DNA of 32,000 nt from an archaeon (GCA_041657425.1 JBBABY010000011.1:1-32000); one strand, 5' to 3'. Positions 1,453 to 17,761 are shown, counted from the stretch's first letter. Notes: generated by a model from the sequence alone, not told the origin. Program-made: numbers and translations.

Positions 1453-3678
1453 ATGCCTGATAATTATAAGAAATATAAGATGTCTAGAGAGAACCCTGGA
1501 GAAATCTATAGTTCAATATCAATAGACTCAAGAGATTTTTCTAAACCTTCAGATAAATTGTCTAAGAAAGTATCTGGCGGATATGTTACTTTTTGTAAAA
1601 AGATATATGAAAAGTTTCCAAGTCTAGGACAAAACGGTAAATTTACAGAAGAATATCAAAAAGCAATTGATTTTTTAGATTGGGACTTAAGTGCAGAAGA
1701 ATATAATGCAACAGTTAAGTTTGTTTTAATTGGAGGAATATTTCTAGTAATGTTAATTGTAGGATTACTTTTTAAATTTCTATTGCCTATAATGACAGAA
1801 GCTTTTGGTTCTTCAATTTTTGCAATGATTTTAGTTATAGGTATTCCTTTCGGAGTTTTCTTTTATATTTATAACACCGTTAGAAGATATCCGTTAGTGA
1901 AAGTAGAAGACGAAACAATAAAAGCATTAACTTTTGTTCCTGAGATTCTAGGTTATATGATAATGTCTATGAAGTTAGTACCTAATTTAGAAAAAGCAAT
2001 AGAGTTTGCGTCAATTCACGGTCATGGAAAGATCGCAGAAGATCTAAAAAAATTATTGTGGGAAGTAAAAGTTGGAATAAAGAACAGTGTTGCTGAAGGA
2101 CTAGATGATTTAGCATATAGATGGGGAGATGTTTCAGTAGAATTAAAAAAAGGATTAATGAAAATAAGAGCATCAGTTATTGAATCCTCAGAAAGTAAAA
2201 GATATCAATTATTAGATCAAACAATGAGTGAAACATTAGTTTCAGTAAAAAGTAAATTAGAAGACTATGCAAGAACTTTAAATCAACCAGCAACTATTAT
2301 GTTTTATTTAGGAATTCTTTTACCATTACTTTTAATTATTGTTCTCCCTGTTGGTTCTGCTTTTTCTGGTTCTGCTCTTGCTCAGCCAATTTATTTAATA
2401 TTGATTTATAATATTACAATACCTCTTGCTTGTTTTTTCTTTGCTCAAGGAGTTATTAAGAAAAGACCTCCAACATATAATCCCCCACATATCCCTGATG
2501 ATTTTCCAGGACTACCAAAGAAGAATCATTTAAAGATTGGTGAAAATCAATTTAATGTTTTTATAATAATTATTATCTTAGTAGTTGCAAGTGTATTTGC
2601 AGGATTGTTTTTAGAAAAAACATTTGGAATAACTAAGGAAAAGATACTAGAAGAACAATTAGGAACAACAACTCCAGTGTGGCCTTGTGATACAGTAGCT
2701 GACAAAGCTTCAAAAGCATTAAATCCTAATTTTCGATGTACAGAAGAAAGATTATTCTGGCAAGATCCTAAAAATGCAGTTACTCCATATTTTGTTATTT
2801 TCTTTAGTTTAATGGCAGCGGCGTTATCAATTTCTCTATGGTGTTATACAACAAGTGTTTACAAAAGAAGAATACAATTAACAACTGAAACTCAAGAAAA
2901 AGAGTTTAAGGACGCTCTTTATATTATTGCTAGTCGCTTAGGAGAAAACAAGCCAATAGAAGATGCATTTGATCATACAAGACAATTCCTTTCAAAGTCA
3001 AGTGTTGCTAGAGATATTTTTGGTAAGACTGTTGATAATATTAGAGTTTTAGGTTTAACACTTGAAGCAGCTGTCTTTGATAAGACTTATGGTGCTTTAA
3101 AGAACAATCCTTCAACAATCATAAGTAGTGCTATGCAATTAGTTGTTGATTCTGTACAGATGGGAGTTAATGTTGCAGCTAAGACATTGTTATCTTACTC
3201 AATGCAACTTAGAAACACAGATGAGATTAATCGTCTTCTTTCAACGTTGATTGCAGAAATCACTTCAACATTAGATAGTATGGCTAAATTTATTGGTCCA
3301 ATTATCTTAGGAGTAACAACAACTCTTCATAAAGTGGTGATTTCCACTCTTGCTTCAGTTGCAAGTTCAGGGGCAATTCAAGAAATGTCTCAGTCTTTAG
3401 AGAACATAGAAAGCGCAGGAATTGGAAGCAATCTAAGTTCTATTTCTTCATTTGGTAATGCCATTAATGTGGATGTTATTGGAAAATTAGCAGGAGCAAC
3501 TGCCTTTACAATTATTGTTGCAATCTATTTGATAGAAATCGTTCTTATCATGACATATTTTACAACCATGATTGAACAAGAAAATATGACTCTTGTAAAG
3601 TATAGAATTTCTCAAACACTTCCAATTGCAGTTATATTATTTATAGTTACAGTAATCTTAGCAAACATGGTATTATGA
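1453..3678 (+). CDS. PilC/TadC/ArlJ(FlaJ)-like polytopic platform protein of a type IV pilus-like system, unusually long at 741 aa
   Basis: About 9 predicted TM helices. Two cytoplasmic helical repeats are each followed by TM pairs, as in T2SSF domains (FVPEILGYMIMSMKLVPNLEKAIEFASIHGHGKIAEDLKKLLWEVKVGIKNSVAEGLDDLAYRW... and EFKDALYIIASRLGENKPIEDAFDHTRQFLSKSSVARDIFGKTVDNIRVLGLTLEAAVFDKTYG...). It heads an operon of prepilin-like genes. Assigned by eye only. Confidence 0.5.
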   Translation: MPDNYKKYKMSRENPGEIYSSISIDSRDFSKPSDKLSKKVSGGYVTFCKKIYEKFPSLGQNGKFTEEYQKAIDFLDWDLSAEEYNATVKFVLIGGIFLVMLIVGLLFKFLLPIMTEAFGSSIFAMILVIGIPFGVFFYIYNTVRRYPLVKVEDETIKALTFVPEILGYMIMSMKLVPNLEKAIEFASIHGHGKIAEDLKKLLWEVKVGIKNSVAEGLDDLAYRWGDVSVELKKGLMKIRASVIESSESKRYQLLDQTMSETLVSVKSKLEDYARTLNQPATIMFYLGILLPLLLIIVLPVGSAFSGSALAQPIYLILIYNITIPLACFFFAQGVIKKRPPTYNPPHIPDDFPGLPKKNHLKIGENQFNVFIIIIILVVASVFAGLFLEKTFGITKEKILEEQLGTTTPVWPCDTVADKASKALNPNFRCTEERLFWQDPKNAVTPYFVIFFSLMAAALSISLWCYTTSVYKRRIQLTTETQEKEFKDALYIIASRLGENKPIEDAFDHTRQFLSKSSVARDIFGKTVDNIRVLGLTLEAAVFDKTYGALKNNPSTIISSAMQLVVDSVQMGVNVAAKTLLSYSMQLRNTDEINRLLSTLIAEITSTLDSMAKFIGPIILGVTTTLHKVVISTLASVASSGAIQEMSQSLENIESAGIGSNLSSISSFGNAINVDVIGKLAGATAFTIIVAIYLIEIVLIMTYFTTMIEQENMTLVKYRISQTLPIAVILFIVTVILANMVL

Positions 3679-4199
3679 AATTTAAATTAACAGAAAAAGG
3701 AGATGGAGAAAGTTTTGAAACTTTTCGTTTACTTATTGCTTTCGTTCTTGCCCTTGCAGTTTTAGTAATTATTATTAGTATGGTTAATAGTACAAATAAA
3801 CAAGCAATACTTATTAGTGATCAAAAACTTAAAGAAGGACTGCTGTCCGCAGCAAAGAGTCCAGGGACAAGCACAAGAATTCCATTTATTATTGAAGACT
3901 TAATGTTATCAGGAACCATTTCTAAAACAAGAATAAGTAATTATTCTGGCCTTGATGGAAATTGTATAGCTTTAGTTTATGGTGCAGGAATCACTCCCCT
4001 TAATCCAAATACAAATGATATTTTAAAAATAAAGGCAAGCAGATTAGAAATGAATGTTTATGCTTATTGTGATTTTAATGATGGGGACCATCCAGATGTT
4101 GCAGAAGATCAAATTTCTACAGACTCTGTTGTTTGTCCTACATACTGTGTATTTTTCTTTAATAAGAAACCAGATGATTCTCTTTATCATTCCGATTAA
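3675..4199 (+). CDS. Pilin-like protein with a divergent class III signal peptide; a distant member of the head-domain family seen at 5896-8374
   Basis: MKFKLTEKG/DGESFETFRLLIAFVLALAVLVIII (charged leader, KG, hydrophobic helix). LLSAAKSPGTSTRIPF...SGLDGN...C..VYGAG...YCVFFFNKKP loosely parallels LLKTQVDSPGAEQCTTKVTF...TGLDPE...CVVYPRKTA. 4 Cys. ATGA overlap with the upstream gene. Confidence 0.5.
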   Translation: MKFKLTEKGDGESFETFRLLIAFVLALAVLVIIISMVNSTNKQAILISDQKLKEGLLSAAKSPGTSTRIPFIIEDLMLSGTISKTRISNYSGLDGNCIALVYGAGITPLNPNTNDILKIKASRLEMNVYAYCDFNDGDHPDVAEDQISTDSVVCPTYCVFFFNKKPDDSLYHSD

Positions 4200-4263: not shown

Positions 4264-4755
4264 ATGAATATTTTTACAAAAATCTTATTTGTTATTCTTG
4301 CAGTAATAATACTGGTGCTTGGTTTCTTTGTTGGAACTATTATACTTATAGTTATTTTTACTTTATTAATACTTATGACTATTTTGTTTGTAGTTATTTG
4401 GATATTCAATAATATAGTAAGTTTGTTTCAAACGAATTTTGCGAAACTTGCATTTAAGTCTATATTTTCAGTTGCAATAACATATGGGTTAATTGAATTA
4501 CTTTGGTTATTTACTTCTAAATCTTTTTTAGCTATGGATAAAGCAATTGCAATCTCAACACTTTGGGTAATCTCTGCATTGATTTTTGGAACCTTATGGT
4601 ATTTATTACACCTTAAGCAATCAGCAAAGAAACATCAATATCTTTGGGATGAATATAAATCTCCAAACACTTTAAGTCTTATGGATGTTCTTTTAATGGT
4701 GGTCTTTCCATCCATAATGATATTAATATTCAACTCAATACATACTTTGATATAA
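4264..4755 (+). CDS. Polytopic membrane protein, function unknown
   Basis: 163 aa, 4-5 hydrophobic helices, in-operon position. No conserved catalytic motif recognised. Confidence 0.55.
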   Translation: MNIFTKILFVILAVIILVLGFFVGTIILIVIFTLLILMTILFVVIWIFNNIVSLFQTNFAKLAFKSIFSVAITYGLIELLWLFTSKSFLAMDKAIAISTLWVISALIFGTLWYLLHLKQSAKKHQYLWDEYKSPNTLSLMDVLLMVVFPSIMILIFNSIHTLI

Positions 4756-4756
4756 T

Positions 4757-5857
4757 ATGCCAACTATAATCAATAAAGAAAAAGAAAAGATTGTAACAAG
4801 AATAATTGGCAATATTATAACTAATCATCATCTTCAAACTAATCAAGTTTATTATTATAACAAATATGAAATTACTACATTTATTGATATAGAATTTAAA
4901 AAAATACTACTTGCAAAGTTTTCAGAGAAAGAATTAGTTAAGCTTTCTGAAAGAATAAAGTTGTTCTATGCAAATAAACCAAACTCTAATCAACTTGCTT
5001 CTTTTTATGAAATGTTTAGGTATTTACGTAATCATCCTAATTCTTTAGATTTAAAAAAAGATAAACTAAGTTTTCTATTTTCTGAAATAAAGAATATTGA
5101 GCAAAAGAAACTATTGACAATGGTTTATTCTAAAAGAGCAGAAGATTGGTGTAAAGAAACATATCCTGGTTTTTTAAGATCTCAAACCGCAAATACACTA
5201 TATACTGCAAAAGTAAAAATAAACGGAGTTATAAAAAGAGTATTTATTAAAACTCCAATTGGAAAGACTAGAACAGAGGATCTTGGTTTTAATAAACTAA
5301 TGATTGATCCAGATACTTTTAGATTATATACTTTCAAGACTGATAATTCTGGGAAAATTATTGAAAAAAGTATTAGGCCTCCTAAATTAAATACAATGAA
5401 TCGAAATGTGGATAATAGTCAATATATCTCTCTTGAAGAATTCAAGACCAGATTTACTTATAATTTAGTCAAATATATAGATGAAAAATATGGTTTAGAA
5501 AACCTTATTTCATCTTACACCGTGTTTGGTGGGAAGACTAATTTAGAAAGACTAGAAAATTCTAAAGATATTATTTTTAGTTATTTAAAAGACAAATATA
5601 AATTATCTCAATCAATTACAATTTTTGCAAAATTAATTAAATCTATATTAATTCAACAACCAAGAGAGAATCAAGAATTCGTTAGAGAATATTTATCTTT
5701 AGTAATTAAAGAAACAATTCAGAAAAACACAAAACCAGAAGAATATAGAATGCACGAAAGTTTATTTAAGAAAACGATTTTTGAAGATAAGATAAAAGTA
5801 AATAATACAAAAAAATCAAAAGTTTCAAAGCCATCAGCAAAGATAAGACCTAAGTAA
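4757..5857 (+). CDS. Basic soluble protein of unknown function embedded in the pilus locus
   Basis: 366 aa, no TM segment, Lys-rich tail (KVNNTKKSKVSKPSAKIRPK). Starts 1 nt after the previous stop. No motif recognised. Confidence 0.55.
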   Translation: MPTIINKEKEKIVTRIIGNIITNHHLQTNQVYYYNKYEITTFIDIEFKKILLAKFSEKELVKLSERIKLFYANKPNSNQLASFYEMFRYLRNHPNSLDLKKDKLSFLFSEIKNIEQKKLLTMVYSKRAEDWCKETYPGFLRSQTANTLYTAKVKINGVIKRVFIKTPIGKTRTEDLGFNKLMIDPDTFRLYTFKTDNSGKIIEKSIRPPKLNTMNRNVDNSQYISLEEFKTRFTYNLVKYIDEKYGLENLISSYTVFGGKTNLERLENSKDIIFSYLKDKYKLSQSITIFAKLIKSILIQQPRENQEFVREYLSLVIKETIQKNTKPEEYRMHESLFKKTIFEDKIKVNNTKKSKVSKPSAKIRPK

Positions 5858-5895
5858 ATAAATAACCTTTTAAATGGTTTATCTCTTTCTTTTTT

Positions 5896-6594
5896 ATGGA
5901 TTCAAAAAAAGTAGATAAATGGTTAATGATTATCTCAGGTGTTTTTTTAATTATAGGATTAAGTTTTATTATTTATTGTATAAATTATGTTGGAACATTA
6001 TCTACAACACAAGGATTATTATTTTTTATAGGAACTATTTTTACTGCTTTTTTTTCAGGATATTTAATTTTATCTTTTATAATGTGGACGTTTCAATCAA
6101 TTTTTAAGAAACTAAGTGATCATTTTAAAGTTGATATTTTTCTTAAATTATTTGTTTGGATAATTATTTCAGTAATTTTATTTGTATTAATAAGAGGACA
6201 TTTTACAGAACATAATTATAATTCTCCAACAAATATTATTAAATCAAAACTTTTACATTCTGCAATAGAAACCCCAGAATTAGAGCATTGCTCAGATTCA
6301 ATTATTTTCAATAAAGGAACATATAGAATAACTTCTGAAAGTGTTACAAAAGAAACAGGATTATTGCCTGAACAAATTATTTTTATTAATCCACAAGACA
6401 TTAATAAATTTGAAGTAAAAGATAATGTGCTACAAAATAAAGACTTTTACCCAAAATCATATATTATTTGTGCAATTTGTGATGTTGGCAAAACTAAATT
6501 ACAATCCACCCTTATAGTAAATAATATAAATACAATAATTGATTCAAATATTGAAGGACAAACATTATGTGCAGTTTATCCTAAAACAATATAA
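5896..6594 (+). CDS. Three-TM membrane module fused to a diverged pilin-type head domain
   Basis: N-terminus MDSKKVDKWLMI..YLILSFIMW..FKKLSDHFK..TM. C-terminus ETPELEHCSDSIIFNKG..GLLPEQIIFINPQ..SYIICAICD..GQTLCAVYPKTI aligns with the head of pilin 7850-8374, with the same four Cys positions. Confidence 0.7.
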   Translation: MDSKKVDKWLMIISGVFLIIGLSFIIYCINYVGTLSTTQGLLFFIGTIFTAFFSGYLILSFIMWTFQSIFKKLSDHFKVDIFLKLFVWIIISVILFVLIRGHFTEHNYNSPTNIIKSKLLHSAIETPELEHCSDSIIFNKGTYRITSESVTKETGLLPEQIIFINPQDINKFEVKDNVLQNKDFYPKSYIICAICDVGKTKLQSTLIVNNINTIIDSNIEGQTLCAVYPKTI

Positions 6595-6612
6595 TTAAAA
6601 TAAATGATAAAT

Positions 6613-6927
6613 ATGGATTCAAAAAAAGTAGATAAATGGTTAATGATTACTTCTGGGATTTTACTTATCCTTGGTGGTGTTCTATTTTATTTCAATAGAG
6701 CGTTTGGTGGGAACTTTATAACTCACGCAATAGTAAGAATTGTGGGAATAATTATAATAATCTTTTCAATATGTTATTTAGTATTATCATTATTGATGGC
6801 AATACTTCAATTAATCTTTAAGAAATTAAGCAACCACTTCAAAGCAGAAGTTTGGTTTAAGATAGTTCTCTCAATAATTCTTACAATTATTATTTCTTAC
6901 ATACTAGGAAGTTTACCAAGCATATAA
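6613..6927 (+). CDS. Stand-alone copy of the three-TM module, with no head domain
   Basis: I prefer the ATG at 6613 over the track start at 6604, because 6613-6649 is identical over 37 nt to the start of gene 5896. MDSKKVDKWLMI..YLVLSLLMAILQLIFKKLSNHFKAEVWFKIVL parallels the 5896 N-terminus. Confidence 0.6.
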   Translation: MDSKKVDKWLMITSGILLILGGVLFYFNRAFGGNFITHAIVRIVGIIIIIFSICYLVLSLLMAILQLIFKKLSNHFKAEVWFKIVLSIILTIIISYILGSLPSI

Positions 6928-6928
6928 A

Positions 6929-7762
6929 ATGAAAAAGGAAAAAAATATGGACTTAAAAAAAGAAGACGAAGATTACATTTACGAGGCAGTGAATAAAGCT
7001 AATAAATCTACAGTAAATTCAAAGGATGGAGGTAAATATAAAGAAATAGATAAAACTATTTTACAATGGTGTCCAATTGTATTGATACTATTAATAACTA
7101 TTGGCATTTTATTTTCTACATTGTCTGCAATTGGTGGCAACCAGACATTGATTCTAGCTATTCTTTTTTATACATATATAACATTATGTACATTTACTAT
7201 ATCTTATCTTGTTTTGTCTTTGTTATTTTGGATAATCGGGTTACTATCAAAAACATTTAAAGAAGATTACAAGTCTAAATTTTATTTGAAAATAAGTATA
7301 AGTGTTATAGCAATTATAATAATACTTATTATAATAAATTCAACTTCTTGTATTGGCTGTAATTCAATGAATACAATACCTATAAAAAATACAAAAACAT
7401 TATTAAAAACTCAAATAGATAATCCAGGAGCAGAACAATGTACAACAAGTGTAACATTTACTAGAAGTGTGTCTAAATTATCATCAGAAGGAATTACACA
7501 AGATTCTGGTTTAAACCCAGAACAAGTTTATTTTGATAACCCCCAACAAATAAGTTCATTTGATATAAGTAATCCTCAAACATTAAAATATACATTTACA
7601 ACTTCAAAAAAAGTGGTAATGTGTATTCTTTGTTCAAATAGTATAGAAAATTTAAATTATGCAATTAGTGAAAATGCAAGAGCTACAGATGAGTTTGGAA
7701 GTGTGCCAAACATAACAGACAACCAAACAATTTGTGTAGTTTATCCAAGAAAGACTGCATAA
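6929..7762 (+). CDS. Three-TM membrane module fused to a pilin-type head domain (close paralogue of pilin 7850-8374)
   Basis: 277 aa. The TM module is YLVLSLLFWIIGLLSKTFKEDYKSKFYLKISI.... The head is TKTLLKTQIDNPGAEQCTTSVTFTRSVS..NPEQVYFDNP..LKYTFTTSKKVVMCILCSNSIENLNYAISENA..QTICVVYPRKTA. The true start may be the ATG at 6947 (MDLKK), which resembles the MDSKK starts of the paralogues. Confidence 0.7.
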   Translation: MKKEKNMDLKKEDEDYIYEAVNKANKSTVNSKDGGKYKEIDKTILQWCPIVLILLITIGILFSTLSAIGGNQTLILAILFYTYITLCTFTISYLVLSLLFWIIGLLSKTFKEDYKSKFYLKISISVIAIIIILIIINSTSCIGCNSMNTIPIKNTKTLLKTQIDNPGAEQCTTSVTFTRSVSKLSSEGITQDSGLNPEQVYFDNPQQISSFDISNPQTLKYTFTTSKKVVMCILCSNSIENLNYAISENARATDEFGSVPNITDNQTICVVYPRKTA

Positions 7763-7794
7763 CAAGCTTTAAAAAGATTTTGTTAATATTATTT

Positions 7795-7846
7795 CATTAT
7801 ATTATATTTAAGTAAAAGAAAAGAATTTAAAAAAACAAAAAGGTGA
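7795..7846 (+). promoter_or_regulatory. Putative promoter (TATA-like cattatattatatttaag) and Shine-Dalgarno AGGTGA for the canonical pilin gene
   Basis: This is the largest intergenic gap in the locus (7763-7849). AGGTGA at 7841-7846 lies 3 nt from the ATG at 7850 and 9 nt from the ATG at 7856, so 7856 may be the real start. Confidence 0.3.
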
Positions 7847-7849
7847 AAA

Positions 7850-8374
7850 ATGATTATGTTAAAATTAAACAATAAAGGACAAGCATCATCAACATTTCAA
7901 TTATTGATTGCTGCAGTAGTTGCACTTGCAATACTTGGAGTATTGTTAAGTATATTAAATGTAATTCCCGGACCAAATGCGGATCCAAGTAATGCTACAA
8001 AAACATTGTTAAAAACTCAAGTAGATAGTCCTGGTGCAGAGCAATGTACTACAAAAGTAACATTTACTAGAAGTGTGTCTAGAGTTGCTACAGAATCAAT
8101 TACTGCAGAAACAGGATTAGATCCAGAACAAGTGTATTTCGATAATCCAGAAGGTATGACTCCACCATTTGAACTTAGTGAAAATCAACAATTACTTAAA
8201 TATACATCTACTACTTCAAAAAAAGTAATTATGTGTATTATTTGTTCAAATAGTATAGAACATTTAAATTCTGCAATTAGTGAAAATGCAAAGTCTACAG
8301 ATGATTTTGGAAATGTGCCAGAGGTAGAAGATGGACAAACACTTTGTGTAGTTTATCCAAGAAAAACAGCATAA
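7850..8374 (+). CDS. Archaeal type IV pilin with a canonical class III signal peptide
   Basis: MIMLKLNNKG/QASSTFQLLIAAVVALAILGVLLSIL shows the [KR]G-Q-A cleavage motif followed by a hydrophobic helix. The globular head of about 125 aa has 4 Cys. Confidence 0.8.
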   Translation: MIMLKLNNKGQASSTFQLLIAAVVALAILGVLLSILNVIPGPNADPSNATKTLLKTQVDSPGAEQCTTKVTFTRSVSRVATESITAETGLDPEQVYFDNPEGMTPPFELSENQQLLKYTSTTSKKVIMCIICSNSIEHLNSAISENAKSTDDFGNVPEVEDGQTLCVVYPRKTA

Positions 8375-8389
8375 TTAAGATGAAACATT

Positions 8390-8626
8390 ATGAATTTTAA
8401 ACAAGAGCTGAAAAGGTTATTGAAGGAGAAGAGAGGACAGGCTGATGGGGCTTCTACTCTCTATATGCTAATAATCGTAGCTGTAGTTGCTCTTGTTCTA
8501 ATTTCTGTTATTAAACCAATGTTTAGTAGAAGTATGAAAACTCAAGTGGATCTTGCAAATCTCCCTAATCAAGGAACAACTGCAAGTCCAACTGTTAATG
8601 CTCCTGCAACTACTGGAACAACTTAA
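8390..8626 (+). CDS. Small type IV pilin (78 aa precursor) and a candidate major subunit
   Basis: KEKRG/QADGASTLYMLIIVAVVALVLISVI class III signal peptide, with a short Thr/Pro-rich tail TTASPTVNAPATTGTT. The size is like that of short archaeal major pilins. Confidence 0.7.
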   Translation: MNFKQELKRLLKEKRGQADGASTLYMLIIVAVVALVLISVIKPMFSRSMKTQVDLANLPNQGTTASPTVNAPATTGTT

Positions 8627-8687
8627 ATTATCAAGTAAAAGCAAAACAACAAGCTTTTTAAATTCTTTTTCTATATTTATTTCTAAT

Positions 8688-9281
8688 ATGAACAATAATA
8701 TCTCTGTGATTAAAAGTAAACGTGGACAAGCAAGTGCTCCTTTCGAAGTTTTAGTCGCTGTTATTCTTATGGGCTTTGTTATAATCGCAGGCACCTGGGC
8801 CTTAACTAATCTTTCTCAAAGTACTTGTATTGGGGATAAGAGACAAAATATGAGTGAACTTAAAGAAGCAATTAGAGATGTTGTTCTTGGTTCTGATTTA
8901 ACAATTAAAAATATAAGTTTTGATACAAGACCTTGCTTAAATCAAAAATATGAAACAATAACACTTACAAGTTATGATAGCCCAACTAGATGTCAAGCAT
9001 ATTGTGGTGGTGGAGAAAATTGTATTTTAATGGAATATATTTATGATGATGGAAAAACTAGACAAATGCCAATTACTCCAATCTGTATGGATTTACCAAC
9101 AGCAATAAGTTTTGAAACATCATTAGCAGAGTGTGGTACTCAATATCTCCCTGAGGACTGGTTTGCAATGAATCTAAGTTCAAGTCCAAGTCCGAATATA
9201 ACTTCTGGAAAATATAGATTATTTATGAAAAGTACAAGTAGTAATAGTGTAAGAGAAATGTGTTTTCTAAAGAGATTGTGA
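8688..9281 (+). CDS. Pilin-like protein with a class III signal peptide and a Cys-rich head (8 Cys)
   Basis: I prefer the ATG at 8688 (MNNNISVIKSKRG/QASAPFEVLVAVILMGFVIIAG). The track start at 8553 would overlap gene 8390-8626 and add a low-complexity extension. Confidence 0.75.
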   Translation: MNNNISVIKSKRGQASAPFEVLVAVILMGFVIIAGTWALTNLSQSTCIGDKRQNMSELKEAIRDVVLGSDLTIKNISFDTRPCLNQKYETITLTSYDSPTRCQAYCGGGENCILMEYIYDDGKTRQMPITPICMDLPTAISFETSLAECGTQYLPEDWFAMNLSSSPSPNITSGKYRLFMKSTSSNSVREMCFLKRL

Positions 9282-9288
9282 AAAATAA

Positions 9289-9984
9289 ATGATTGAATTT
9301 TCTTTATCTAAATTAAATATGTTAATATTTGTTACAGCTGTTGCAGCGATAGTTATCTTTTTTATGGCAGCAGTTAATTCTCAAATGAAAACAAGACAAA
9401 GTTTTGAACTAGTCTATAAAGTTGGAAAGGAACTAAAGACAGGTATTGAAAGTAATAGTTATTGTACGGTTAAGTTCATTACTATTCCAAAAACAATACA
9501 AACAAATTCTAATGGATCAGATGCATTTAATATAAAGTATAAATTAAATATTTCAGCTTATGCAGAGAAAAAGAAGTTAGTTCTAGCAGTAATTGATAGA
9601 AAACAATATAAACCAAAAATCTATGCAGCTTATGATATTGATTATGAAGGAACTATGAAATTATATAATTCTGTTTGTAATGCCGATACTCAATGTAATG
9701 GATCTACAAATATAGAAGTGACCGGTGGAGATCCAAGTATAGTTGATTTTGATCCATTAAAAGTAAATTCCATTGATACTCAGATTCTTTTTGCAAAAAC
9801 AATTAATAATGGCAGTCCTACAATATATTTAATTCCTTGTCTTTATAAGAATGGAATATATAGTTGTCGTGCTTTCTTAAATGCTGATAGTTCTGGAACA
9901 AAATTAAAAGATTTAATACCATGTCTAGGAGCAGTAAGTAATTTAGTTGATTATACTGATCAATCAACAGGAAGTGCAAGTTAG
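9289..9984 (+). CDS. N-terminally anchored secreted protein, possibly a minor pilin, with no canonical KGQ motif
   Basis: MIEFSLSKLNMLIFVTAVAAIVIFFMAAV hydrophobic N-terminus, 6 Cys, in-operon position. Confidence 0.5.
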   Translation: MIEFSLSKLNMLIFVTAVAAIVIFFMAAVNSQMKTRQSFELVYKVGKELKTGIESNSYCTVKFITIPKTIQTNSNGSDAFNIKYKLNISAYAEKKKLVLAVIDRKQYKPKIYAAYDIDYEGTMKLYNSVCNADTQCNGSTNIEVTGGDPSIVDFDPLKVNSIDTQILFAKTINNGSPTIYLIPCLYKNGIYSCRAFLNADSSGTKLKDLIPCLGAVSNLVDYTDQSTGSAS

Positions 9985-10497
9985 ATGAACAAAAAAGGAT
10001 ACATTGGAGCAATTGGTGACGATCTCCCAAGTTTAATACCAATATTCTTAGGTATAACTATCTTCTTTGCTGTATTTTTAAGTACCTATAATGTTTATAG
10101 AAATAACACAGACCTTTATTCTTTAAGAAACGATGCAATAAATATTGCAGGAGTTATGAAAGAAGAACCATTAATTGCTGATCAAAATCAGTTTAATAAA
10201 TCTTGTGGAAGAATAAAAACTAAATATAACTGGAATGCATTTATTACTTCTTTTGATCTTAATTCAGATAATTATCATTCTCTTAAACCCAGTGATCTTA
10301 ATCCAGATGTACTATATCAACATTGGGAAGAGGAAGAACTAGGCACTTCTAGAAAACTAATATGTAAGGAAGATGGATTAGAAGAATTAAAAACAACACT
10401 TGAAACAAAAGATGTAACAATCTATAAATACCCAATAACTGTTCAACAGGAATTCTTTGCAGAGCCAGCGTGGTTATATGTTGCAGTTTGGAAATAG
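9985..10497 (+). CDS. N-terminally anchored pilin-like or pilus accessory protein
   Basis: MNKKG/YIGAIGDDLPSLIPIFLGITIFFAVFL (KG followed by a hydrophobic helix). 2 Cys. The ATG directly abuts the preceding TAG. Confidence 0.5.
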   Translation: MNKKGYIGAIGDDLPSLIPIFLGITIFFAVFLSTYNVYRNNTDLYSLRNDAINIAGVMKEEPLIADQNQFNKSCGRIKTKYNWNAFITSFDLNSDNYHSLKPSDLNPDVLYQHWEEEELGTSRKLICKEDGLEELKTTLETKDVTIYKYPITVQQEFFAEPAWLYVAVWK

Positions 10498-10506
10498 GAA
10501 AGAATT

Positions 10507-11313
10507 ATGAAACTAGCACCAATTAAATTAAGAAGTAAAAAAGGACAAGCAGCAATAACTGATGCTTTATTTTTCTTATTAGTAATTGTAACTCTTTCTG
10601 TTTTAATGTTTAGGTATTCTTCAACTTATGGAACAAGAATTAATCAAGCAACTTCTGATTTATATTATAAAGAATATACAAATTCAGTTTTAAAAACAAT
10701 ATTTTATACCTCTGTTCCATTAAATTATTCTCTTGATCTCAATTCTAGTTTAGAAACAGATTATTTGATGACACAAGTAAAACAAAATTACTATGCAAAT
10801 GGAAAGATTGGGGAGTCTGATATTAATAGCTTAAATATTGGCACTCCTGGGGCTCCGGACTATAGAGATCTTGCAAAATTTAATTTATTTCATACAGTGA
10901 AAGCAACAATGATTCCATTAAGTTCTCATGATTATGTGTTTTATCTTTATAATGATGAAAATGATTCATTTGCTTATTTTATGATTAAGAATACTAATTT
11001 CAATCCAGTTGAGTTAAATTCAAATGCTCCAAGAAATGCAACTGCTCGTGGGATTGTAAATTATACTAATTCAATTCCTAATTATTATCTTTGTAATCCA
11101 AATGGCTATGCAGATATAAGAGATGTAATTTCTAGATCTCCAAAAATTTTCTCATCTTCTGTACCTTTATCTTTTCAACAATATACTGAAATTGGAAATA
11201 ATGTGTCATATCCTAAATCAACAGTCATTGCAACATTTGCTATTTGGCCAGCAACAGTCGATATCAATTCAATAATGCTAGAAGAGCAATTGAATTGTAA
11301 AATCGTGGATTAA
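10507..11313 (+). CDS. Large pilin-like protein with a class III signal peptide, a candidate minor or tip pilin
   Basis: MKLAPIKLRSKKG/QAAITDALFFLLVIVTLSVL. 268 aa, 2 Cys, several N-x-S/T sequons. Confidence 0.7.
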   Translation: MKLAPIKLRSKKGQAAITDALFFLLVIVTLSVLMFRYSSTYGTRINQATSDLYYKEYTNSVLKTIFYTSVPLNYSLDLNSSLETDYLMTQVKQNYYANGKIGESDINSLNIGTPGAPDYRDLAKFNLFHTVKATMIPLSSHDYVFYLYNDENDSFAYFMIKNTNFNPVELNSNAPRNATARGIVNYTNSIPNYYLCNPNGYADIRDVISRSPKIFSSSVPLSFQQYTEIGNNVSYPKSTVIATFAIWPATVDINSIMLEEQLNCKIVD

Positions 11314-12736: not shown

Positions 12737-15700
12737 ATGAATGAATTAATAAAAAAAACGTGGGTTATTTTCTTTTTAATAATATTCTGTAATAGTATAT
12801 TTGCAGGAATTAATCCTGACAGATTATATTTTGCAGACACCGAAAATTCCTCACCTAGTAAAACAGGAATAGTTTTTGATCGTGGAAACGGATGTATGAC
12901 TACAGAGCTTCCAGAAGAATCAGTAAATGCGTTATGGAAAGAAATACTAATTAAAGGATTTTCCGTAGACACCTTAGGTTCTGATCAACCTGAAAATCTA
13001 AAAAGAGAAACTTTAGATAAAAATCAATTACTATTAACTGAAGCAGATGCTAAAGCAGGGGATATGGCAATAAAAAAAGAAATTCCCTCTCAATTAATAG
13101 ATCCATTAGAAGTGCCAATGCTTATTGGAAAAACCTGTCAAGGGGCTTTTTCATATGGAGCAAATTTAAAAGAAACACTAAGAGTTGGAAGATGTACTGG
13201 AAAAGACGCAGACAGTGAATGCTACTTAGCAGATTATGGACAATATAGACAAAACGGAATGACTGGTTTTTTAAAAGAAACAAAAGTTGTAGGTAAAGAT
13301 CTTATTAAAGGATTAAAAGACACATTAACTCTTAATGGCGATAGTAATTCAGATTCTAATAAAACAATGAATGAAGACTTAGGAGCATTTACAGATATTT
13401 CTTCAGCAGAATTAGAGCAATATTATCAAGCAATGGAAGCTAGTGATAGTAATTCTATTGAAACTGAAACTTGGAAATCAGTAGGTAATAAAGTTATAGA
13501 AAATACTTCTTTTACAACTAATTTCGCAGTAACAATGCAAACTACTTGTAGAGGAGAAAATTGTTATATTAATACTTATTCTTTATTTGATAAAATGTTT
13601 AATCAATATTTTTCTTTAGATATGGTTTATAGTGCAACATCTCCTGTGTTTTACAATACTATGGCAAGAATTGTAAATAATACCCCACTAGTTAAGAAAG
13701 GGTTAACTGCACTTCCAACTGCTTTAAAGAAAAAAGGGATAATTAAAGAAGGCGGATTTATAGATACTTTAACAAAAGATCCTGGTTTATTTATTCAAGA
13801 TCCATTTGGAAGAATAAAAAAATCATTTGATGCAGGGATATTTAGAAAATCTAATGTTGATAATTATGTTGAAGTTAATCTTAAACATTTTGATATACTA
13901 AAAAGAGATATACAAAACAATGATATTCAAGATGAAATAACTGCAACTTTAAAAGCACTTCAAGATAATCCTGGCGCAACTGCAGCCACAACTCAAGATT
14001 TAATTATTAAGAATTCTGCAAAATTAAATGCAGTTCAAAAAAGAGCATATGCTGATGTTATGCAAATATATCAATCAAAATTTGCAGCATCAAATGCATT
14101 ATTAAAATCAAAGATTGCAGATGGTGATTTTATAAGTGCAAAAAAAATAATTGATGAAGTAAGAGCAAATGGAGAACCAATTGATAACGCTCTAAGAAAA
14201 TTAACAAAAACACAACTTGATGCTTATGAAGATGCAGCATATACTGCTTCAACATTATCTCAAGCACATAAAGATATGGGATTTTCATCATATAGTTGGC
14301 AAGATGGATTTGATAAATCTGCAATAGTTGCTGACAGAAAATTACCAATTGCGGAAGTCAGTAGTACAGGTGTACCAGGCACACCTCCCACTATAACTAA
14401 AACCACTTTGGATTTAAAAACATATAAATCAAAAGACGGACATTCCTTCGGAGAGTTATTAGACAAAGAAAAACTGGGTACTGAATTTAATGGTTTTAGA
14501 TATAAGACTGATAGTAAATATGGATATGTAATGAAAGATATGGGCGATGTTCAAACAATTGATTATAAGATAATTCTCGCAGATGGAACTGAAGTTACAA
14601 GAAAAAGATTAAAAACAGTTATTGAAAATGTTGATAGATCAATACCAGGATATCCCGCAAATTTCGATGATTTAAAGGCAATTGCAAAAGAAAATCCTAA
14701 TGCAGTAATTTCCTATTTAGATGGATCAACAATAAAAGAAATTAAAGGGTATCAATTAAATGATACCTTGAAAGCAAAAATCACTTCTTTTGGAGGGACC
14801 GGAAATACAACAGTTTATACAAATGTAAAACCCGATTTTGTAGATAATGCGCTTCCTATTGATCCTTCAACAATACATCCAATTACAAATCCTTTAGGAA
14901 GTCCATATGCTGCCGGAGCATTAGATACAGATCCATTAGAAACAATGGCTTCATTAATGGACACCACTCCTGGTAAATTATCAGGTACTACTGGACGTTT
15001 TGATGAAGTTAATACTGCTCTAGCAAATAAAGAATGGGTTACAGGAAGAGGAAGAGATTTTATTTCTCAGCAATCTAAAATATATAATGGTGCGGCTTAT
15101 CAAAGATTTTTTACAAGAAATCCACTTGCTTTTGGAATTAATTTTGGATATTGGCAATTTAAAACAATGGGGAATACAATATTTGGAGAAACTCTTGGGC
15201 TAACTGAATATTCTATGTACCAATTACCTGAAACATATTCTGCTTTGCAAATAAAACATAAAGAAAATGCAAAAATTTATGATGATGCATATGTTGATTT
15301 CTTTGCAAATGATGGTTCTGATCAAGGAGATCTATTTATGGCATTTTTAAATTCTGGACTAATGTGGGCTAATTGGGCACCTCAAAAAATAATTGGTTCA
15401 ATAGAAGCAGATTGGGCACAATCTCTTAAAAGTACAATGAATAATATAACTCAAGGTCAAATAAAAAGATCAAAAGTTGATGATATTGTTTTAATTACAA
15501 ATAATATTAATTCTGGTTGTAATCAATCATGTAATTTTTCAATAGCTTCTGATTATTTAGAAAAAAATACTAAAAATGCGTCAATGGCTATGGAATTACA
15601 AATGATAGACTCTAATGCTCCGACAGATGTAAATAGTTCAACAGATGTAAATGCTCCAAAGAACCTTAATTCAAGTACATCAATACAACCCGCAATAAAT

Positions 15701-17761
15701 TATAATCAAATTAAAATCGATAGTGTAATTCCACAAAATGCAAATATAAAAACTACAAATTATTTATTAGAAAATACTTCTGATAAAAATTTAAAGAATC
15801 TAGGACAAACATTAATATCGTTTTCACATCATACAGATTATGATGGAACAGTAGCAACTGAAACAACAGAAAAAGCAATTGATTTATTAGATGCCCAAGA
15901 GCAAGGAAATACTTGTTCTCAAAAAGTAACTGAACTTGCATTAATGGGCCTTCCAATAGGGAGATTGTTACCAAAATCATTTAGAAATTATAGATTAGCG
16001 GCAGTGTTATCATTAGAACAACATTTTGCTTATGTTTTATTTCCTGGATCTGGATATTTTAGTTCATTTTTAGGTCCAGCAATATTTAGTGATTTGCCTC
16101 AACAATTTTTAATAATGCCTGAATTAAAAGGATGTGTTGATGATGAAGAGGGATTATATTCTCACTTTTTTGTTTCAGCAGAAGAAACTGATAGAATCGC
16201 AAAAGATTCAAAAAATAAAGTTGGCGAAGCAATAATAGAGGGAACAAAACAAGTAGAAACTGCAGTTTCAAAAATAACTTCTGGAACAGATCTTGAAAAA
16301 GGAGTGAAGTTTGGTTCAGAGCAAGTTCAAAAGTTTGCTGAAGAAAAACTTCAAGAGGATCCAATCGTTCAATCAACCTATACAACTGCAGGAGCAACAG
16401 CAGCTTCAGTAGAAGGTCAATTATTCTTTTTTGAAATAGGGCCAAGAGCAACTTGTAGAGCAAGTGGTTACAATGACAAGGGCGTTGAAGTATTAATGGG
16501 CCAAGATTCAAATGGAAATGATATGAATGTTAGAATCGACAAAGAAAAAGGAGAATTAACAGTAACTGATGCAAACGGCACAAGAACAATTATTGGCGGA
16601 AACAATAAAGATTTCGTAAGATTAATGGGAGATAATTTTGCAATTCCTGCTAAAGTTATACCACATAGTCTAAGTTATATTCCAACACCAAATGATACTT
16701 TACCATTATTTGAAATTGATGCTTATGGGAATTTAAGTGTTAAAAACGCAGAGTTCTTTGATTGTTTAAGAGCGGGCTATGAAGCGCAGACTGGTCTTAC
16801 CATGTCTTCAAGTGCAAGTAATTTAACTGAATATTTAGGTGCAGTAAAACTTGCTAATGTAATTCACCCTTCAGGAGCATATACCACTACATTTAGCGGA
16901 GATGGAATACTTGCTCAAGGTGCGGGGTTACCAAGAGAATTAACAAGTGGTAATAATTCAAAAGCAACAATATTAGGAAATAGATTTACAAAGATTGGTC
17001 CAATTGATGGTAGTGATAAAACAATTGGTCAAAATGTTGCAATTCAATTTGAAAAAGGACAATTAGTTTATTATGAAGATAAACAAGCATATATACTTTG
17101 GGTAGAAAATACAACAATCACTCATGGAAATGATATTGCAAAATTAAAAACTGAAATTACAAAAGAACAAGCAACAAATGGTTGTGATAAAGAAGAATTA
17201 GGAATCCAATTTTCAACCACTCCAGTTAAAGATAATGATCAAGCAAAAGCAAATACTGATAAATTAAATAAAGCTTTAGAAAAAGTTGGCCCATTTCAAA
17301 TGTTTGATACTCCAACTAAAACATTTATCTTTTACATAAGTGATCCACCAGAGTGTAAGCAAAGATTAAAGATAATTGATAAAGAAACAGGAGTAGTAAC
17401 TGATAGTGAAATACTTTCTTTTGAAAAAACCCCAAATGGTATATCTGTTAAGACAGCAGATGGTTCAACACACAATTTAGAATTTACTGCAGAAGATGGG
17501 GTTCCAAAATTAACATATAATGGAGATAAAGAAACATTAACTTCAGCTCAAGGAAAGAATGGTTCTTTCTGGTTTGATCCAGAGACTGGTAATTGGTATA
17601 CAACTAACGGAAATTTAATTCCTTTAAATGACAAATTTAAAGACGGAGTAACCTTTGCAGTTAATCCAAATGGAACAGTAACTGGTACACCAGAACAAAT
17701 GTATTCAATATTGGTTCAGGTGGTTCAGGAAAGAGCGGTAGTGGATTTAATGTTCCATTAG
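12737..17761 (+). CDS. Giant secreted/surface protein (1674 aa as read, about 1700 aa if joined to the out-of-frame C-terminal anchor)
   Basis: N-terminal signal-like MNELIKKTWVIFFLIIFCNSIFAG. AAGGTG lies 8 nt upstream of the ATG. 14 Cys after the signal, mostly in close pairs, and many N-x-S/T sequons. No domain recognised. Confidence 0.8.
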   Translation: MNELIKKTWVIFFLIIFCNSIFAGINPDRLYFADTENSSPSKTGIVFDRGNGCMTTELPEESVNALWKEILIKGFSVDTLGSDQPENLKRETLDKNQLLLTEADAKAGDMAIKKEIPSQLIDPLEVPMLIGKTCQGAFSYGANLKETLRVGRCTGKDADSECYLADYGQYRQNGMTGFLKETKVVGKDLIKGLKDTLTLNGDSNSDSNKTMNEDLGAFTDISSAELEQYYQAMEASDSNSIETETWKSVGNKVIENTSFTTNFAVTMQTTCRGENCYINTYSLFDKMFNQYFSLDMVYSATSPVFYNTMARIVNNTPLVKKGLTALPTALKKKGIIKEGGFIDTLTKDPGLFIQDPFGRIKKSFDAGIFRKSNVDNYVEVNLKHFDILKRDIQNNDIQDEITATLKALQDNPGATAATTQDLIIKNSAKLNAVQKRAYADVMQIYQSKFAASNALLKSKIADGDFISAKKIIDEVRANGEPIDNALRKLTKTQLDAYEDAAYTASTLSQAHKDMGFSSYSWQDGFDKSAIVADRKLPIAEVSSTGVPGTPPTITKTTLDLKTYKSKDGHSFGELLDKEKLGTEFNGFRYKTDSKYGYVMKDMGDVQTIDYKIILADGTEVTRKRLKTVIENVDRSIPGYPANFDDLKAIAKENPNAVISYLDGSTIKEIKGYQLNDTLKAKITSFGGTGNTTVYTNVKPDFVDNALPIDPSTIHPITNPLGSPYAAGALDTDPLETMASLMDTTPGKLSGTTGRFDEVNTALANKEWVTGRGRDFISQQSKIYNGAAYQRFFTRNPLAFGINFGYWQFKTMGNTIFGETLGLTEYSMYQLPETYSALQIKHKENAKIYDDAYVDFFANDGSDQGDLFMAFLNSGLMWANWAPQKIIGSIEADWAQSLKSTMNNITQGQIKRSKVDDIVLITNNINSGCNQSCNFSIASDYLEKNTKNASMAMELQMIDSNAPTDVNSSTDVNAPKNLNSSTSIQPAINYNQIKIDSVIPQNANIKTTNYLLENTSDKNLKNLGQTLISFSHHTDYDGTVATETTEKAIDLLDAQEQGNTCSQKVTELALMGLPIGRLLPKSFRNYRLAAVLSLEQHFAYVLFPGSGYFSSFLGPAIFSDLPQQFLIMPELKGCVDDEEGLYSHFFVSAEETDRIAKDSKNKVGEAIIEGTKQVETAVSKITSGTDLEKGVKFGSEQVQKFAEEKLQEDPIVQSTYTTAGATAASVEGQLFFFEIGPRATCRASGYNDKGVEVLMGQDSNGNDMNVRIDKEKGELTVTDANGTRTIIGGNNKDFVRLMGDNFAIPAKVIPHSLSYIPTPNDTLPLFEIDAYGNLSVKNAEFFDCLRAGYEAQTGLTMSSSASNLTEYLGAVKLANVIHPSGAYTTTFSGDGILAQGAGLPRELTSGNNSKATILGNRFTKIGPIDGSDKTIGQNVAIQFEKGQLVYYEDKQAYILWVENTTITHGNDIAKLKTEITKEQATNGCDKEELGIQFSTTPVKDNDQAKANTDKLNKALEKVGPFQMFDTPTKTFIFYISDPPECKQRLKIIDKETGVVTDSEILSFEKTPNGISVKTADGSTHNLEFTAEDGVPKLTYNGDKETLTSAQGKNGSFWFDPETGNWYTTNGNLIPLNDKFKDGVTFAVNPNGTVTGTPEQMYSILVQVVQERAVVDLMFH

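Follow-up and report, generated by a model that had tools for sequence, protein, structure and literature searches.

A pilin-type head domain carried by a class-III-signal prepilin or by a three-helix membrane module at a conserved archaeal locus

The head and module genes

In a stretch of 32,000 nucleotides (nt) from an archaeon (JBBABY010000011.1:1-32000 of assembly GCA_041657425.1), hereafter called the window, four genes designated A, B, C and D follow each other on the same strand between positions 5,896 and 8,374, with gaps of 18-93 nt between them (Table 1). Gene D codes for a prepilin with a canonical class-III signal and a globular head, genes A and C code for proteins in which a head of the same kind follows a module of three transmembrane (TM) helices, and gene B codes for this module alone. 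There is little doubt that one extracellular head is made here with either of two N-terminal parts, a class-III signal that can be cleaved or a three-helix anchor that cannot, that the anchor also occurs on its own, and that heads move between the genes. The open reading frames (ORFs) proposed in a first-pass annotation of the window are present, with the qualification that its starts for C and D (6929 and 7850) lie slightly upstream of those called by both NCBI and ENA (6947 and 7856).

With head DNA repeated within 600 nt, which can mislead assemblers, the fused ORFs might be assembly chimeras across the repeated head or else decaying pseudogenes. However, the sequence of the window is 99.99% identical, with one mismatch, to contig JBAYND010000001.1 (metagenome-assembled genome (MAG) GCA_041678985.1), differs by one mismatch in 11,755 nt from ENA ERZ27247350, and is matched within 99.99-100% identity by Logan sequences from SRR18595299 (3,497 nt, comprising the last ~300 nt of B followed by C, D and downstream DNA) and SRR6484787 (953 nt, comprising the B/C junction and the entire gene C). 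Compared at the level of assemblies and not of reads, the arrangement is reproduced by three others made from different samples and with different assemblers, and because these give 99.99-100% identical sequence (four assemblies from different runs agree if the window is included), it is not an assembly artefact. In addition, the two repeat copies are only 81-84% identical, and ~18 fused clusters with intact ORFs, conserved topology and a ratio of nonsynonymous to synonymous substitutions (dN/dS) below 0.5 exist in other genomes. The suspicion of chimeric or decaying ORFs, raised by the first-pass annotation as a point to be checked in the case of misassembly, is thereby effectively refuted.

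The head domain

The proteins encoded by C and D share 58.6% identity over 169 amino acids (aa) (BLASTP, E-value 3e-65), and the more diverged protein encoded by A is related both to D (31.5% identity over 168 aa, E-value 7.5e-21) and to C (E-value 7.6e-18). Four cysteines and 17 other positions are invariant across nine aligned heads, the diverged one of A included, and the four cysteines probably form two disulfides. With E-values far beyond chance and invariant cysteines, the initial observation that the head of D recurs on C and, as a diverged copy with the same four cysteines, on A is fully borne out.

The head comprises ~125 aa and is of the alpha/beta type. In AlphaFold2 (AF2) models built from alignments of 30-34 sequences, the mean predicted local distance difference test (pLDDT) score is 82.9 for C (head 94-98, three TM helices 56-82, with an extra helix in the cytoplasmic tail) and 90 for D (head 91-97, with a helix at aa 9-33). 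The layout common to both models starts with a long helix, continues with about seven strands among which one very short helix is inserted, and has a second long helix ahead of the final strand. The tether to the head appears as an unstructured loop of ~10 residues in the models and measures ~10-20 residues when counted from the hydrophobic segment. Foldseek searches with the C and D models against the PDB and with the D model against BFVD gave no match with an E-value below 0.3, the best being ~0.35, and for D against the PDB none below 1. Since the head is thus confidently predicted and is without a recognisable solved relative in these searches, bacterial and archaeal pilins and FlaF/FlaG included, it is a candidate for a new fold.

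A more remote relative is encoded upstream by gene E, for which distant membership had likewise been suggested. By BLAST, E and D have only the N-terminal helix in common; a profile of 65 prepilin-form sequences matches residues 10-138 of E at 44.8 bits, whereas a narrow head profile does not match it, which places E in the wider prepilin family.

With regard to the cysteines of the head, a membrane-anchored DsbA/thioredoxin-like protein is encoded ~3-4 kb (four to six genes) away from fused genes that lie next to radA in other contigs (L001 4993-6069, L017 90-1226 and L021 5145-6263; see below), and is possibly relevant to the disulfides of the four-cysteine head.

The three-helix module and the two types of N-terminus

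The module is recognised as a unit by comparing A with B (46% identity over the first 84 aa, BLASTP E-value 3e-15, and 90% identity over the first 51 nt) and B with C (E-value 2e-4). Gene A is identical to family member P0022 and has P0040 as its nearest relative (100% bootstrap), and the orthologues of B (P0008-P0010) are 59-78% identical. A module length of 130-150 aa, as given by the first-pass annotation, fits C (~140 aa) only because of its charged N-terminal cytoplasmic extension and is somewhat too long for A, the module of A and B comprising ~105 aa.

In Kyte-Doolittle scans, D and E have a single TM stretch, as opposed to three in each of A, B and C. The latter three are rich in K/R at the N-terminus and in loop 2 and uncharged in loop 1, and the same pattern is found in 31 family members. 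According to the positive-inside rule, the N-terminus and loop 2 are therefore predicted to reside inside and loop 1 outside the cell, which would place the heads of A and C on the outside; this charge distribution agrees with the earlier proposal that the head is extracellular in every version.

The protein encoded by D starts with MLKLNNKG followed by QASSTFQLLIAAVVALAILGVLL, that is, with a short, positively charged leader ending in [KR]G and continuing with QASS, and has a single Kyte-Doolittle peak at aa 16-36. This N-terminus is nearly invariant in 20 homologues (residues 7-30). Family members of prepilin size have one TM stretch and most of them a [KR]GQ[AS]-type motif, with about a quarter escaping the regular expression used for the motif. 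In turn, the fused and stand-alone members have three TM stretches (two to five in a few distant ones), and a [KR]G motif occurs within the first 70 residues of none of the 28 fused and none of the five stand-alone proteins, A being likewise devoid of a class-III cleavage motif. Neither [KR]G nor any other conserved cleavage motif is found in loop 2 in 32 of these 33 proteins, the remaining one (P0119) having only two TM peaks and no loop 2. Because they combine the absence of a class-III signal with three TM helices, A and C do not fall under the definition of a type IV pilin, and the fused protein would be expected neither to be cut by a prepilin peptidase nor to be pulled from the membrane, and thus to be a permanent membrane protein.

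The possibility that TM3 is a decayed prepilin helix, and the fused protein hence a pilin with an N-terminal extension of two TM helices, is not supported. MAFFT and HMMER do align the prepilin N-terminus onto loop 2 and TM3, and 'FKKL...F.I' resembles 'MFKL...F.L', but the equivalence is positional only. Against a profile of 69 prepilin N-termini, the median score is 1.3 bits for TM3, 0.8 for TM1, 0.3 for TM2 and 0.1 for reversed TM3, and TM3 is the best of the three TM helices in only 13 of 31 proteins. Hydrophobicity alone is conserved in TM3 of the fused form, and C and D have no DNA similarity upstream of the head. The initial description of A and C as proteins in which the prepilin leader is replaced by the module accords with the missing cleavage motif and with a TM3 that is not a decayed pilin helix.

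Some family members carry additional features around the module. A conserved, highly charged cytoplasmic N-extension of 33-47 aa (M.LKKEDEEY[IL]DS...) precedes it in C (6947-7027), P0002, P0035, P0036, P0039, P0041-43, P0065, P0113 and L027 3551-; it is modelled as a helix by AF2 and is a candidate for a peptide that docks a partner in the cytoplasm. An extra pair of cysteines, C-x-G-C or CGDNC, is located right after TM3 at the outer membrane face in C (~7352-7366, ...NSTSCIGCNS...), P0003, P0004, P0012, P0015, P0016, P0035-37, P0039 and P0096, and is missing from A-type proteins, from P0023 and P0028, and from every prepilin form; conceivable functions are an additional disulfide, metal binding, and processing or lipidation. 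Other membrane architectures with the same head, seen in distant family members, comprise those of P0058 (292 aa), with three N-terminal and two C-terminal TM helices around it, P0108 (274 aa), with four N-terminal TM helices before it, and P0095 (230 aa), with a single TM helix followed by a cysteine-rich insert and the head.

Distribution and selection

Word-indexed searches yielded 7 and then 28 relatives, and when 1.84 billion cluster representatives were searched exhaustively by HMMER with a fused-plus-module profile, 98 proteins were obtained (E-value of at most 1e-3), made up of ~18 fused clusters, 3 module-only and ~75 prepilin-form proteins. In none of these 98 hits is the module joined to any other domain. 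The concern that the module might be a known family that is promiscuous in its fusions is hence settled: it has no Pfam or NCBIfam match, is found only alone or together with this head, and is tightly linked to the locus. No match above noise in Pfam, NCBIfam or PHROGs was obtained for the proteins of the locus, nor in Pfam for 65 prepilin-form members. The family is confined to a small clade of archaeal MAGs with a low content of guanine plus cytosine (GC), the GC content of the window being 24-33% per 1-kb interval, and one relative is annotated as Candidatus Diapherotrites (DPANN).

With a dN/dS of 0.19 between B and its copy in locus L015, and of 0.23-0.41 for the fused genes, both B and the fused genes are under purifying selection, and the observation of the first-pass annotation that the module also exists alone applies to a selectively maintained gene. 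The 78-aa head-less prepilin encoded next to D has a dN/dS of 0.08. In contrast, D evolves fast, with a dN/dS of 0.57 against its L015 orthologue as compared to 0.08-0.13 for the neighbouring genes.

Genomic context

The genes of the window belong to a locus that is kept in at least seven other contigs and has a conserved order, comprising the 741-aa membrane protein (73-80% identical between genomes), an E-like prepilin, the 163-aa membrane protein, a variable slot, the head-bearing prepilin, the 78-aa prepilin and four more genes, three of which have class-III-like N-termini. The slot is empty in L005, contains a stand-alone module in L015, L022 and L023, a single fused gene in L020/L026, and in L029 a fused gene together with a 452-aa cysteine-rich secreted protein with an HExxH (HEVGH) metalloprotease motif. 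In the window, it harbours a 366-aa orphan in addition to A, B and C; this orphan has no match in Pfam, NCBIfam or PHROGs and is missing from the syntenic loci L005, L020, L022 and L023. As at least six syntenic loci have the module, solo or fused, directly upstream of the gene for the head-bearing prepilin, it is therefore a recurrent accessory of this pilus-type locus.

A second conserved site is situated between radA and the gene for a phosphoenolpyruvate (PEP)-utilising enzyme, where a fused gene is found in at least four contigs (L001/L019, L017, L021 and L027). Both sites are occupied in the MAG AMR_MDS_2622, which carries one copy in the slot and one next to radA.

The block from 4757 to 7762 was also considered as a mobile element or virus and rejected as such, as it has no PHROGs match and no relatives on viral contigs. 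With 24-26%, its GC content is not distinctive either, since the intervals at 12-13 kb, 22-23 kb and 26-27 kb are equally low or lower.

Table 1. Positions of the head and module genes and of other genes of the locus in the window
Feature	Position	Strand	Length (aa)	Remarks
Gene A	5896-6594	+	232	Three-TM module aa 1-~105 (nt 5896-6210) and diverged four-Cys head aa ~109-232 (nt 6220-6591)
Gene B	6613-6927	+	104	Solitary three-TM module, same subtype as A (MDSKKVDKWL...FKKLSNHFK)
Gene C	6947-7762	+	271	Alternative ATG 6929; charged cytoplasmic N-extension 6947-7027; three-TM module 7028-7351; CIGC linker; head ~7364-7759
Gene D	7856-8374	+	172	Alternative ATG 7850; canonical class-III-signal prepilin; linker, then head ~7970-8371
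Head-cassette DNA of C	7390-7762	+		Repeated in D at 7996-8374
Head-cassette DNA of D	7996-8374	+		Partner of C 7390-7762
Gene E	3675-4199	+	174	Class-III-signal protein (KG followed by DGES...); kept in all syntenic loci
Polytopic membrane protein gene, first gene of every syntenic locus	1453-3678	+	741	Eight TM-like peaks, two large soluble regions
Polytopic membrane protein gene	4264-4755	+	163	About four hydrophobic stretches (by eye); left border of the variable slot
Lysine-rich ORF, family unassigned	4757-5857	+	366	Shares the variable slot with A, B and C
Head-less class-III-signal prepilin gene	8390-8626	+	78	KRG followed by QADG...
Four more conserved locus genes	8688-11313	+		[KR]G and hydrophobic N-terminus in 8688-9281, 9985-10497 and 10507-11313
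One of these four genes	9289-9984	+		Hydrophobic N-terminus only

Exchange of head cassettes

The DNA of the C and D heads is 81-84% identical from the first head codons (TKTLLKTQ; 7390 in C and 7996 in D) up to the stop codons. Phylogenetically, these two heads form a clade (84% bootstrap) apart from the other fused heads, and the synonymous divergence between them (dS = 0.42) is lower than the between-genome values of 0.56-0.80. A corresponding disagreement between the histories of heads and modules is seen elsewhere in the family: the fused protein of L027 and P0023 are 89% identical in the head and 38% in the module, and for P0002 and P0012 it is the module that is more similar (78% identity, as compared to 53% for the head). 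At the DNA level, the identity between L027 and L018 rises from ~50% to 87-100% at aa ~148, stays there until the stop codon and then drops to 33%. Because the histories of module and head disagree and the similarity is sharply bounded at the start of the head and at the stop codon, the heads have been swapped as discrete cassettes, between prepilin and fused genes as well as among fused genes, with breakpoints at the module/head junction and at the stop codon. Of the earlier suggestion that the fused genes serve as a reservoir of head variants, the exchange itself is thus clear, and the suggestion as a whole is supported in part.

Evidence for a pilus-type system

The designation of these proteins as pilins is a provisional one, based on the signal motif, on an N-terminal helix that is invariant, and on the genes that make up the locus. 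Seven clustered genes have class-III-like N-termini. Gene D itself does not match any curated pilin family in Pfam or NCBIfam. Because no ATPase, platform protein or prepilin peptidase was recognised in the window by sequence searches, the claim of a pilus system is based on the seven class-III-like N-termini and on synteny. It is known that components of DPANN type IV pili can escape sequence detection (PMC6393860).

The 741-aa protein was tried as a platform protein of the PilC/TadC/FlaJ type (T2SSF), an assignment that none of the sequence methods supported: it has no match in Pfam or NCBIfam and none in the PDB by phmmer or by a three-sequence profile, and hhalign revealed no internal repeat in it. 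As a highly diverged assembly-platform protein it is a possible candidate. The 78-aa prepilin, which is 92% identical to its L015 orthologue, resembles the head-less major pilins of the Epd/Flp type and may be the major filament subunit of the locus.

Possible roles of the fused protein

Given this architecture, the reading that we tentatively favour, as a leading possibility rather than a probable conclusion, regards the fused form as a non-extractable, membrane-retained paralogue of the pilin at the pilus base, by analogy with ArlF/ArlG of the archaellum. The three helices, often together with a charged cytoplasmic tail, would hold the pilin head on its tether of ~10-20 residues at the outer face of the membrane. 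The module would be a dedicated membrane accessory of the locus, placed at the site of assembly or close to it and of use also when headless, and the module-borne head would touch the matching heads of the filament at the base of the fibre. The fused protein might then act as a stator-like anchor, nucleator or terminator that cannot be extracted, and gene conversion would keep its head compatible with that of the filament. This role at the pilus base is favoured because the solo module is kept in the pilin-adjacent slot, because the tether is short, because the head of C tracks the head of D, and because ArlF/ArlG provide a precedent. As the solo module is conserved in this slot, it would therefore have a pilus-linked function of its own, and a short tether would suit contacts at the base of a pilus better than reaching for a distant target. 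A more specific version, in which a dedicated non-extractable subunit sits under the fibre as anchor, nucleator or terminator with its head matched by cassette conversion, and in which the headless module is a regulator or competitor, appears unlikely.

Several points weigh against a role at the pilus base. No assembly machinery was recognised, as outlined above, and the topology is a prediction based solely on hydropathy and positive-inside reasoning. Because the head-less 78-aa prepilin adjoins D, the latter may be a minor or tip subunit rather than the major one, which would weaken the argument of a matching filament head. The helical core is what normally holds type IV filaments together, and because TM3 is not pilin-like, the fused protein could enter a filament only by head-head contacts. 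Because fused copies also exist in the housekeeping neighbourhood of radA, the fused protein need not be co-regulated with the pilus genes. Finally, the exchange of heads could stem from diversifying selection on an exposed ligand-binding domain and not from the need for compatibility with a filament.

Some of these points would equally be expected if the fused protein were a filament-independent surface adhesin or receptor, which displays the head on the cell body so as to bind the same target at close range (e.g., a host surface in the case of episymbiotic DPANN archaea), with the module being a mere anchor. The copies at the conserved radA-adjacent site outside the pilus-type locus and a TM3 that is not pilin-like are in line with this, and so are a head that evolves fast (dN/dS of 0.57 for D) and recombines as a cassette, as expected of an exposed binding domain, and the tracking of the D head by the C head, which would keep both forms on the same ligand. 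However, a pure anchor role leaves unexplained why purifying selection maintains the headless module of B and orthologues in the slot next to the pilin gene, a tether of ~10-20 residues would leave the head below any S-layer, and no fold or family match points to binding; we therefore regard an adhesin as somewhat unlikely. A different use of the cassettes would be that of a head-variant reservoir, in which the fused genes donate and accept cassettes and the head of the prepilin is varied by gene conversion as in pilE/pilS, which could aid escape from viruses or the switching of hosts. Sharply bounded cassettes are indeed exchanged between genes, three different heads are arranged in tandem in the window, and the prepilin head is fast-evolving. 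Yet A and C are complete ORFs with their own starts, a conserved module and a dN/dS of 0.23-0.41 rather than promoterless, 5'-truncated silent copies, many genomes have a single fused copy at the housekeeping site, and B has no head to donate; a reservoir effect may accordingly be a by-product, and a reservoir as the actual function is improbable.

The probability is similarly low that the locus does not specify a pilus at all and that the class-III N-termini just target and anchor surface proteins, as in the case of bindosome-type substrate-binding proteins, the head then being a surface enzyme or binding domain with two kinds of anchor. In archaea, class-III signals are also widespread among proteins that do not form filaments (bioRxiv 10.64898/2026.04.22.720090), neither ATPase nor platform nor peptidase was recognised in the window or in the examined parts of related loci, no pilin family model matches any of the 65 members, and Foldseek finds no solved pilin-like structure. 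On the other hand, the almost invariant prepilin helix fits a filament core and not a mere anchor, the seven clustered class-III-like genes include a head-less one of 78 aa that is typical of Epd/Flp-type subunits, and undetected components are what has been described for DPANN type IV pili (PMC6393860). Still a little less probable is that the module is a long leader, with a protease other than the prepilin peptidase cutting in loop 2 or after TM3, for instance in the C-x-G-C linker, and thereby freeing a pilin-like subunit or a lipid-anchored or soluble head. Many fused forms do have a conserved C-x-G-C or CGDNC directly after TM3, and ArlG is cut by an unidentified protease on secretion (PMC8667602). 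However, the module including TM3 is kept as an independent gene (B, P0008-10, P0065 and P0113), as no leader would be, A-type proteins, P0023, P0028 and others are without the C-x-G-C, and loop 2 is devoid of a conserved cleavage motif.

Comparison with known filament systems

The closest precedent for a pilin paralogue retained at the base of a pilus is provided by ArlF/ArlG, duplicated filament subunits that stay with the membrane and envelope, where they form a stator (PMC8667602, PMC4425475). In both cases, a filament-subunit paralogue is encoded next to the genes of the filament, and the logic of making one domain in an extractable and a retained form is shared. In contrast, ArlF/ArlG combine one N-terminal TM helix with a beta-sandwich domain of the archaellin fold as compared to three TM helices and an alpha/beta head here, and they occur only in archaellum operons with ArlB/H/I/J, families that were not detected between 1453 and 17761. 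Furthermore, the anchor is here a three-helix module of its own kind, for which a separate gene exists as well, and the head is still being exchanged with a prepilin gene. What the present genes display is paralogy with a prepilin and a non-extractable topology, from which we infer retention in the membrane and a role as stator or anchor.

With the known type IV pilins of archaea, minor ones included (Epd, Aap, Ups and PilA; Makarova et al. 2016, PMC4858521), the proteins D and E and those of 78, 197, 170 and 268 aa share [KR]G followed by a hydrophobic helix, and the locus shares the clustering of pilin-like genes and an extremely fast evolution in which similarity to other systems is lost. 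A and C differ from these by lacking the class-III signal and by their three TM helices, no member of the family matches a Pfam or NCBIfam pilin model, and no ATPase, platform or peptidase was identified near the locus. In term searches of this archaeal pilus census (PMC4858521) and of a 2026 type four filament (TFF) survey, no mention of polytopic proteins with a pilin head came up in the parts of the two sources that were covered, and no description of such a pilin-head/membrane-module arrangement was found in the open-access literature.

As in pilE/pilS, several copies of an exposed variable part of the pilin exist per genome, with evidence of non-reciprocal transfer between the copies. In Neisseria, the pilS copies are silent, promoterless and 5'-truncated, and the pilE/pilS system serves antigenic variation. 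In contrast, A and C are complete genes, are under purifying selection and have their own conserved N-terminal module. In Geobacter, PilA-N and PilA-C are encoded by adjacent genes and the two halves together make up the filament subunit. The likeness consists in the membrane-helix and globular parts being separable and joinable by gene fission and fusion; the difference is that the solo module B lies beside a complete prepilin, and that the module is polytopic and not pilin-like. A functional analogy to the proposed role is offered by PapH of the chaperone-usher pathway and by basal pilins such as SpaB of the sortase pathway, in which the fibre is attached to the cell by a subunit paralogue that is added at the end or located at the base, the assembly systems and folds being unrelated. 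For type IV filaments, we know of no terminator or anchor subunit. For a pilin paralogue putatively repurposed as a membrane-fixed component, the unusual features are the dedicated polytopic module, its solo form, the exchange of head cassettes, and a head fold without a solved relative.

What holds type IV filaments in the membrane, and what sets their length or termination, is poorly understood in every system, and a natural non-extractable pilin paralogue would make this question testable. If the fused protein is indeed an anchor or terminator, it would be the first such subunit for any type IV filament and, after ArlF/ArlG, the second independent case of a filament subunit repurposed as a fixed part of the machine. 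DPANN archaea, presumed to rely on touching their hosts, gain a previously invisible surface module for which there is no Pfam or NCBIfam model. The family also is a clear example of the exchange of a domain cassette between an appendage subunit and a membrane protein, and of a variable slot in a conserved locus. Should the fused proteins prove to be simple adhesins, this would be less surprising, and would still be a useful annotation for unannotated archaeal genes.

Flanking genes and repeats

Just downstream of the locus, a giant secreted protein (12737-17761; 1674 aa, with a signal-like N-terminus and no Pfam domain) is kept, which is also encoded at L020 11323- and L022 6082-, and is preceded by a 177-aa membrane protein and an oppositely oriented acidic protein of 258 aa. 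It is possibly an adhesin or an S-layer-type partner of the system.

Gene D and the 78-aa prepilin gene are bracketed by an inverted repeat (7799-7833 and 8655-8689; 35 nt, 80% complementary). An inverted repeat is located at the same two positions, with a spacing of 821-887 nt, in L015 (477-500/1350-1373), L020 (6380-6406/7294-7320) and L022 (948-992/1862-1906). It may represent two partly palindromic promoter elements resembling the B recognition element (BRE) and TATA box, or the arms of an invertible segment. The motif AAGCTTTwwAAA is present in both arms of the repeat in L015, L020 and L022, the arms in the window being without AAGCTT.

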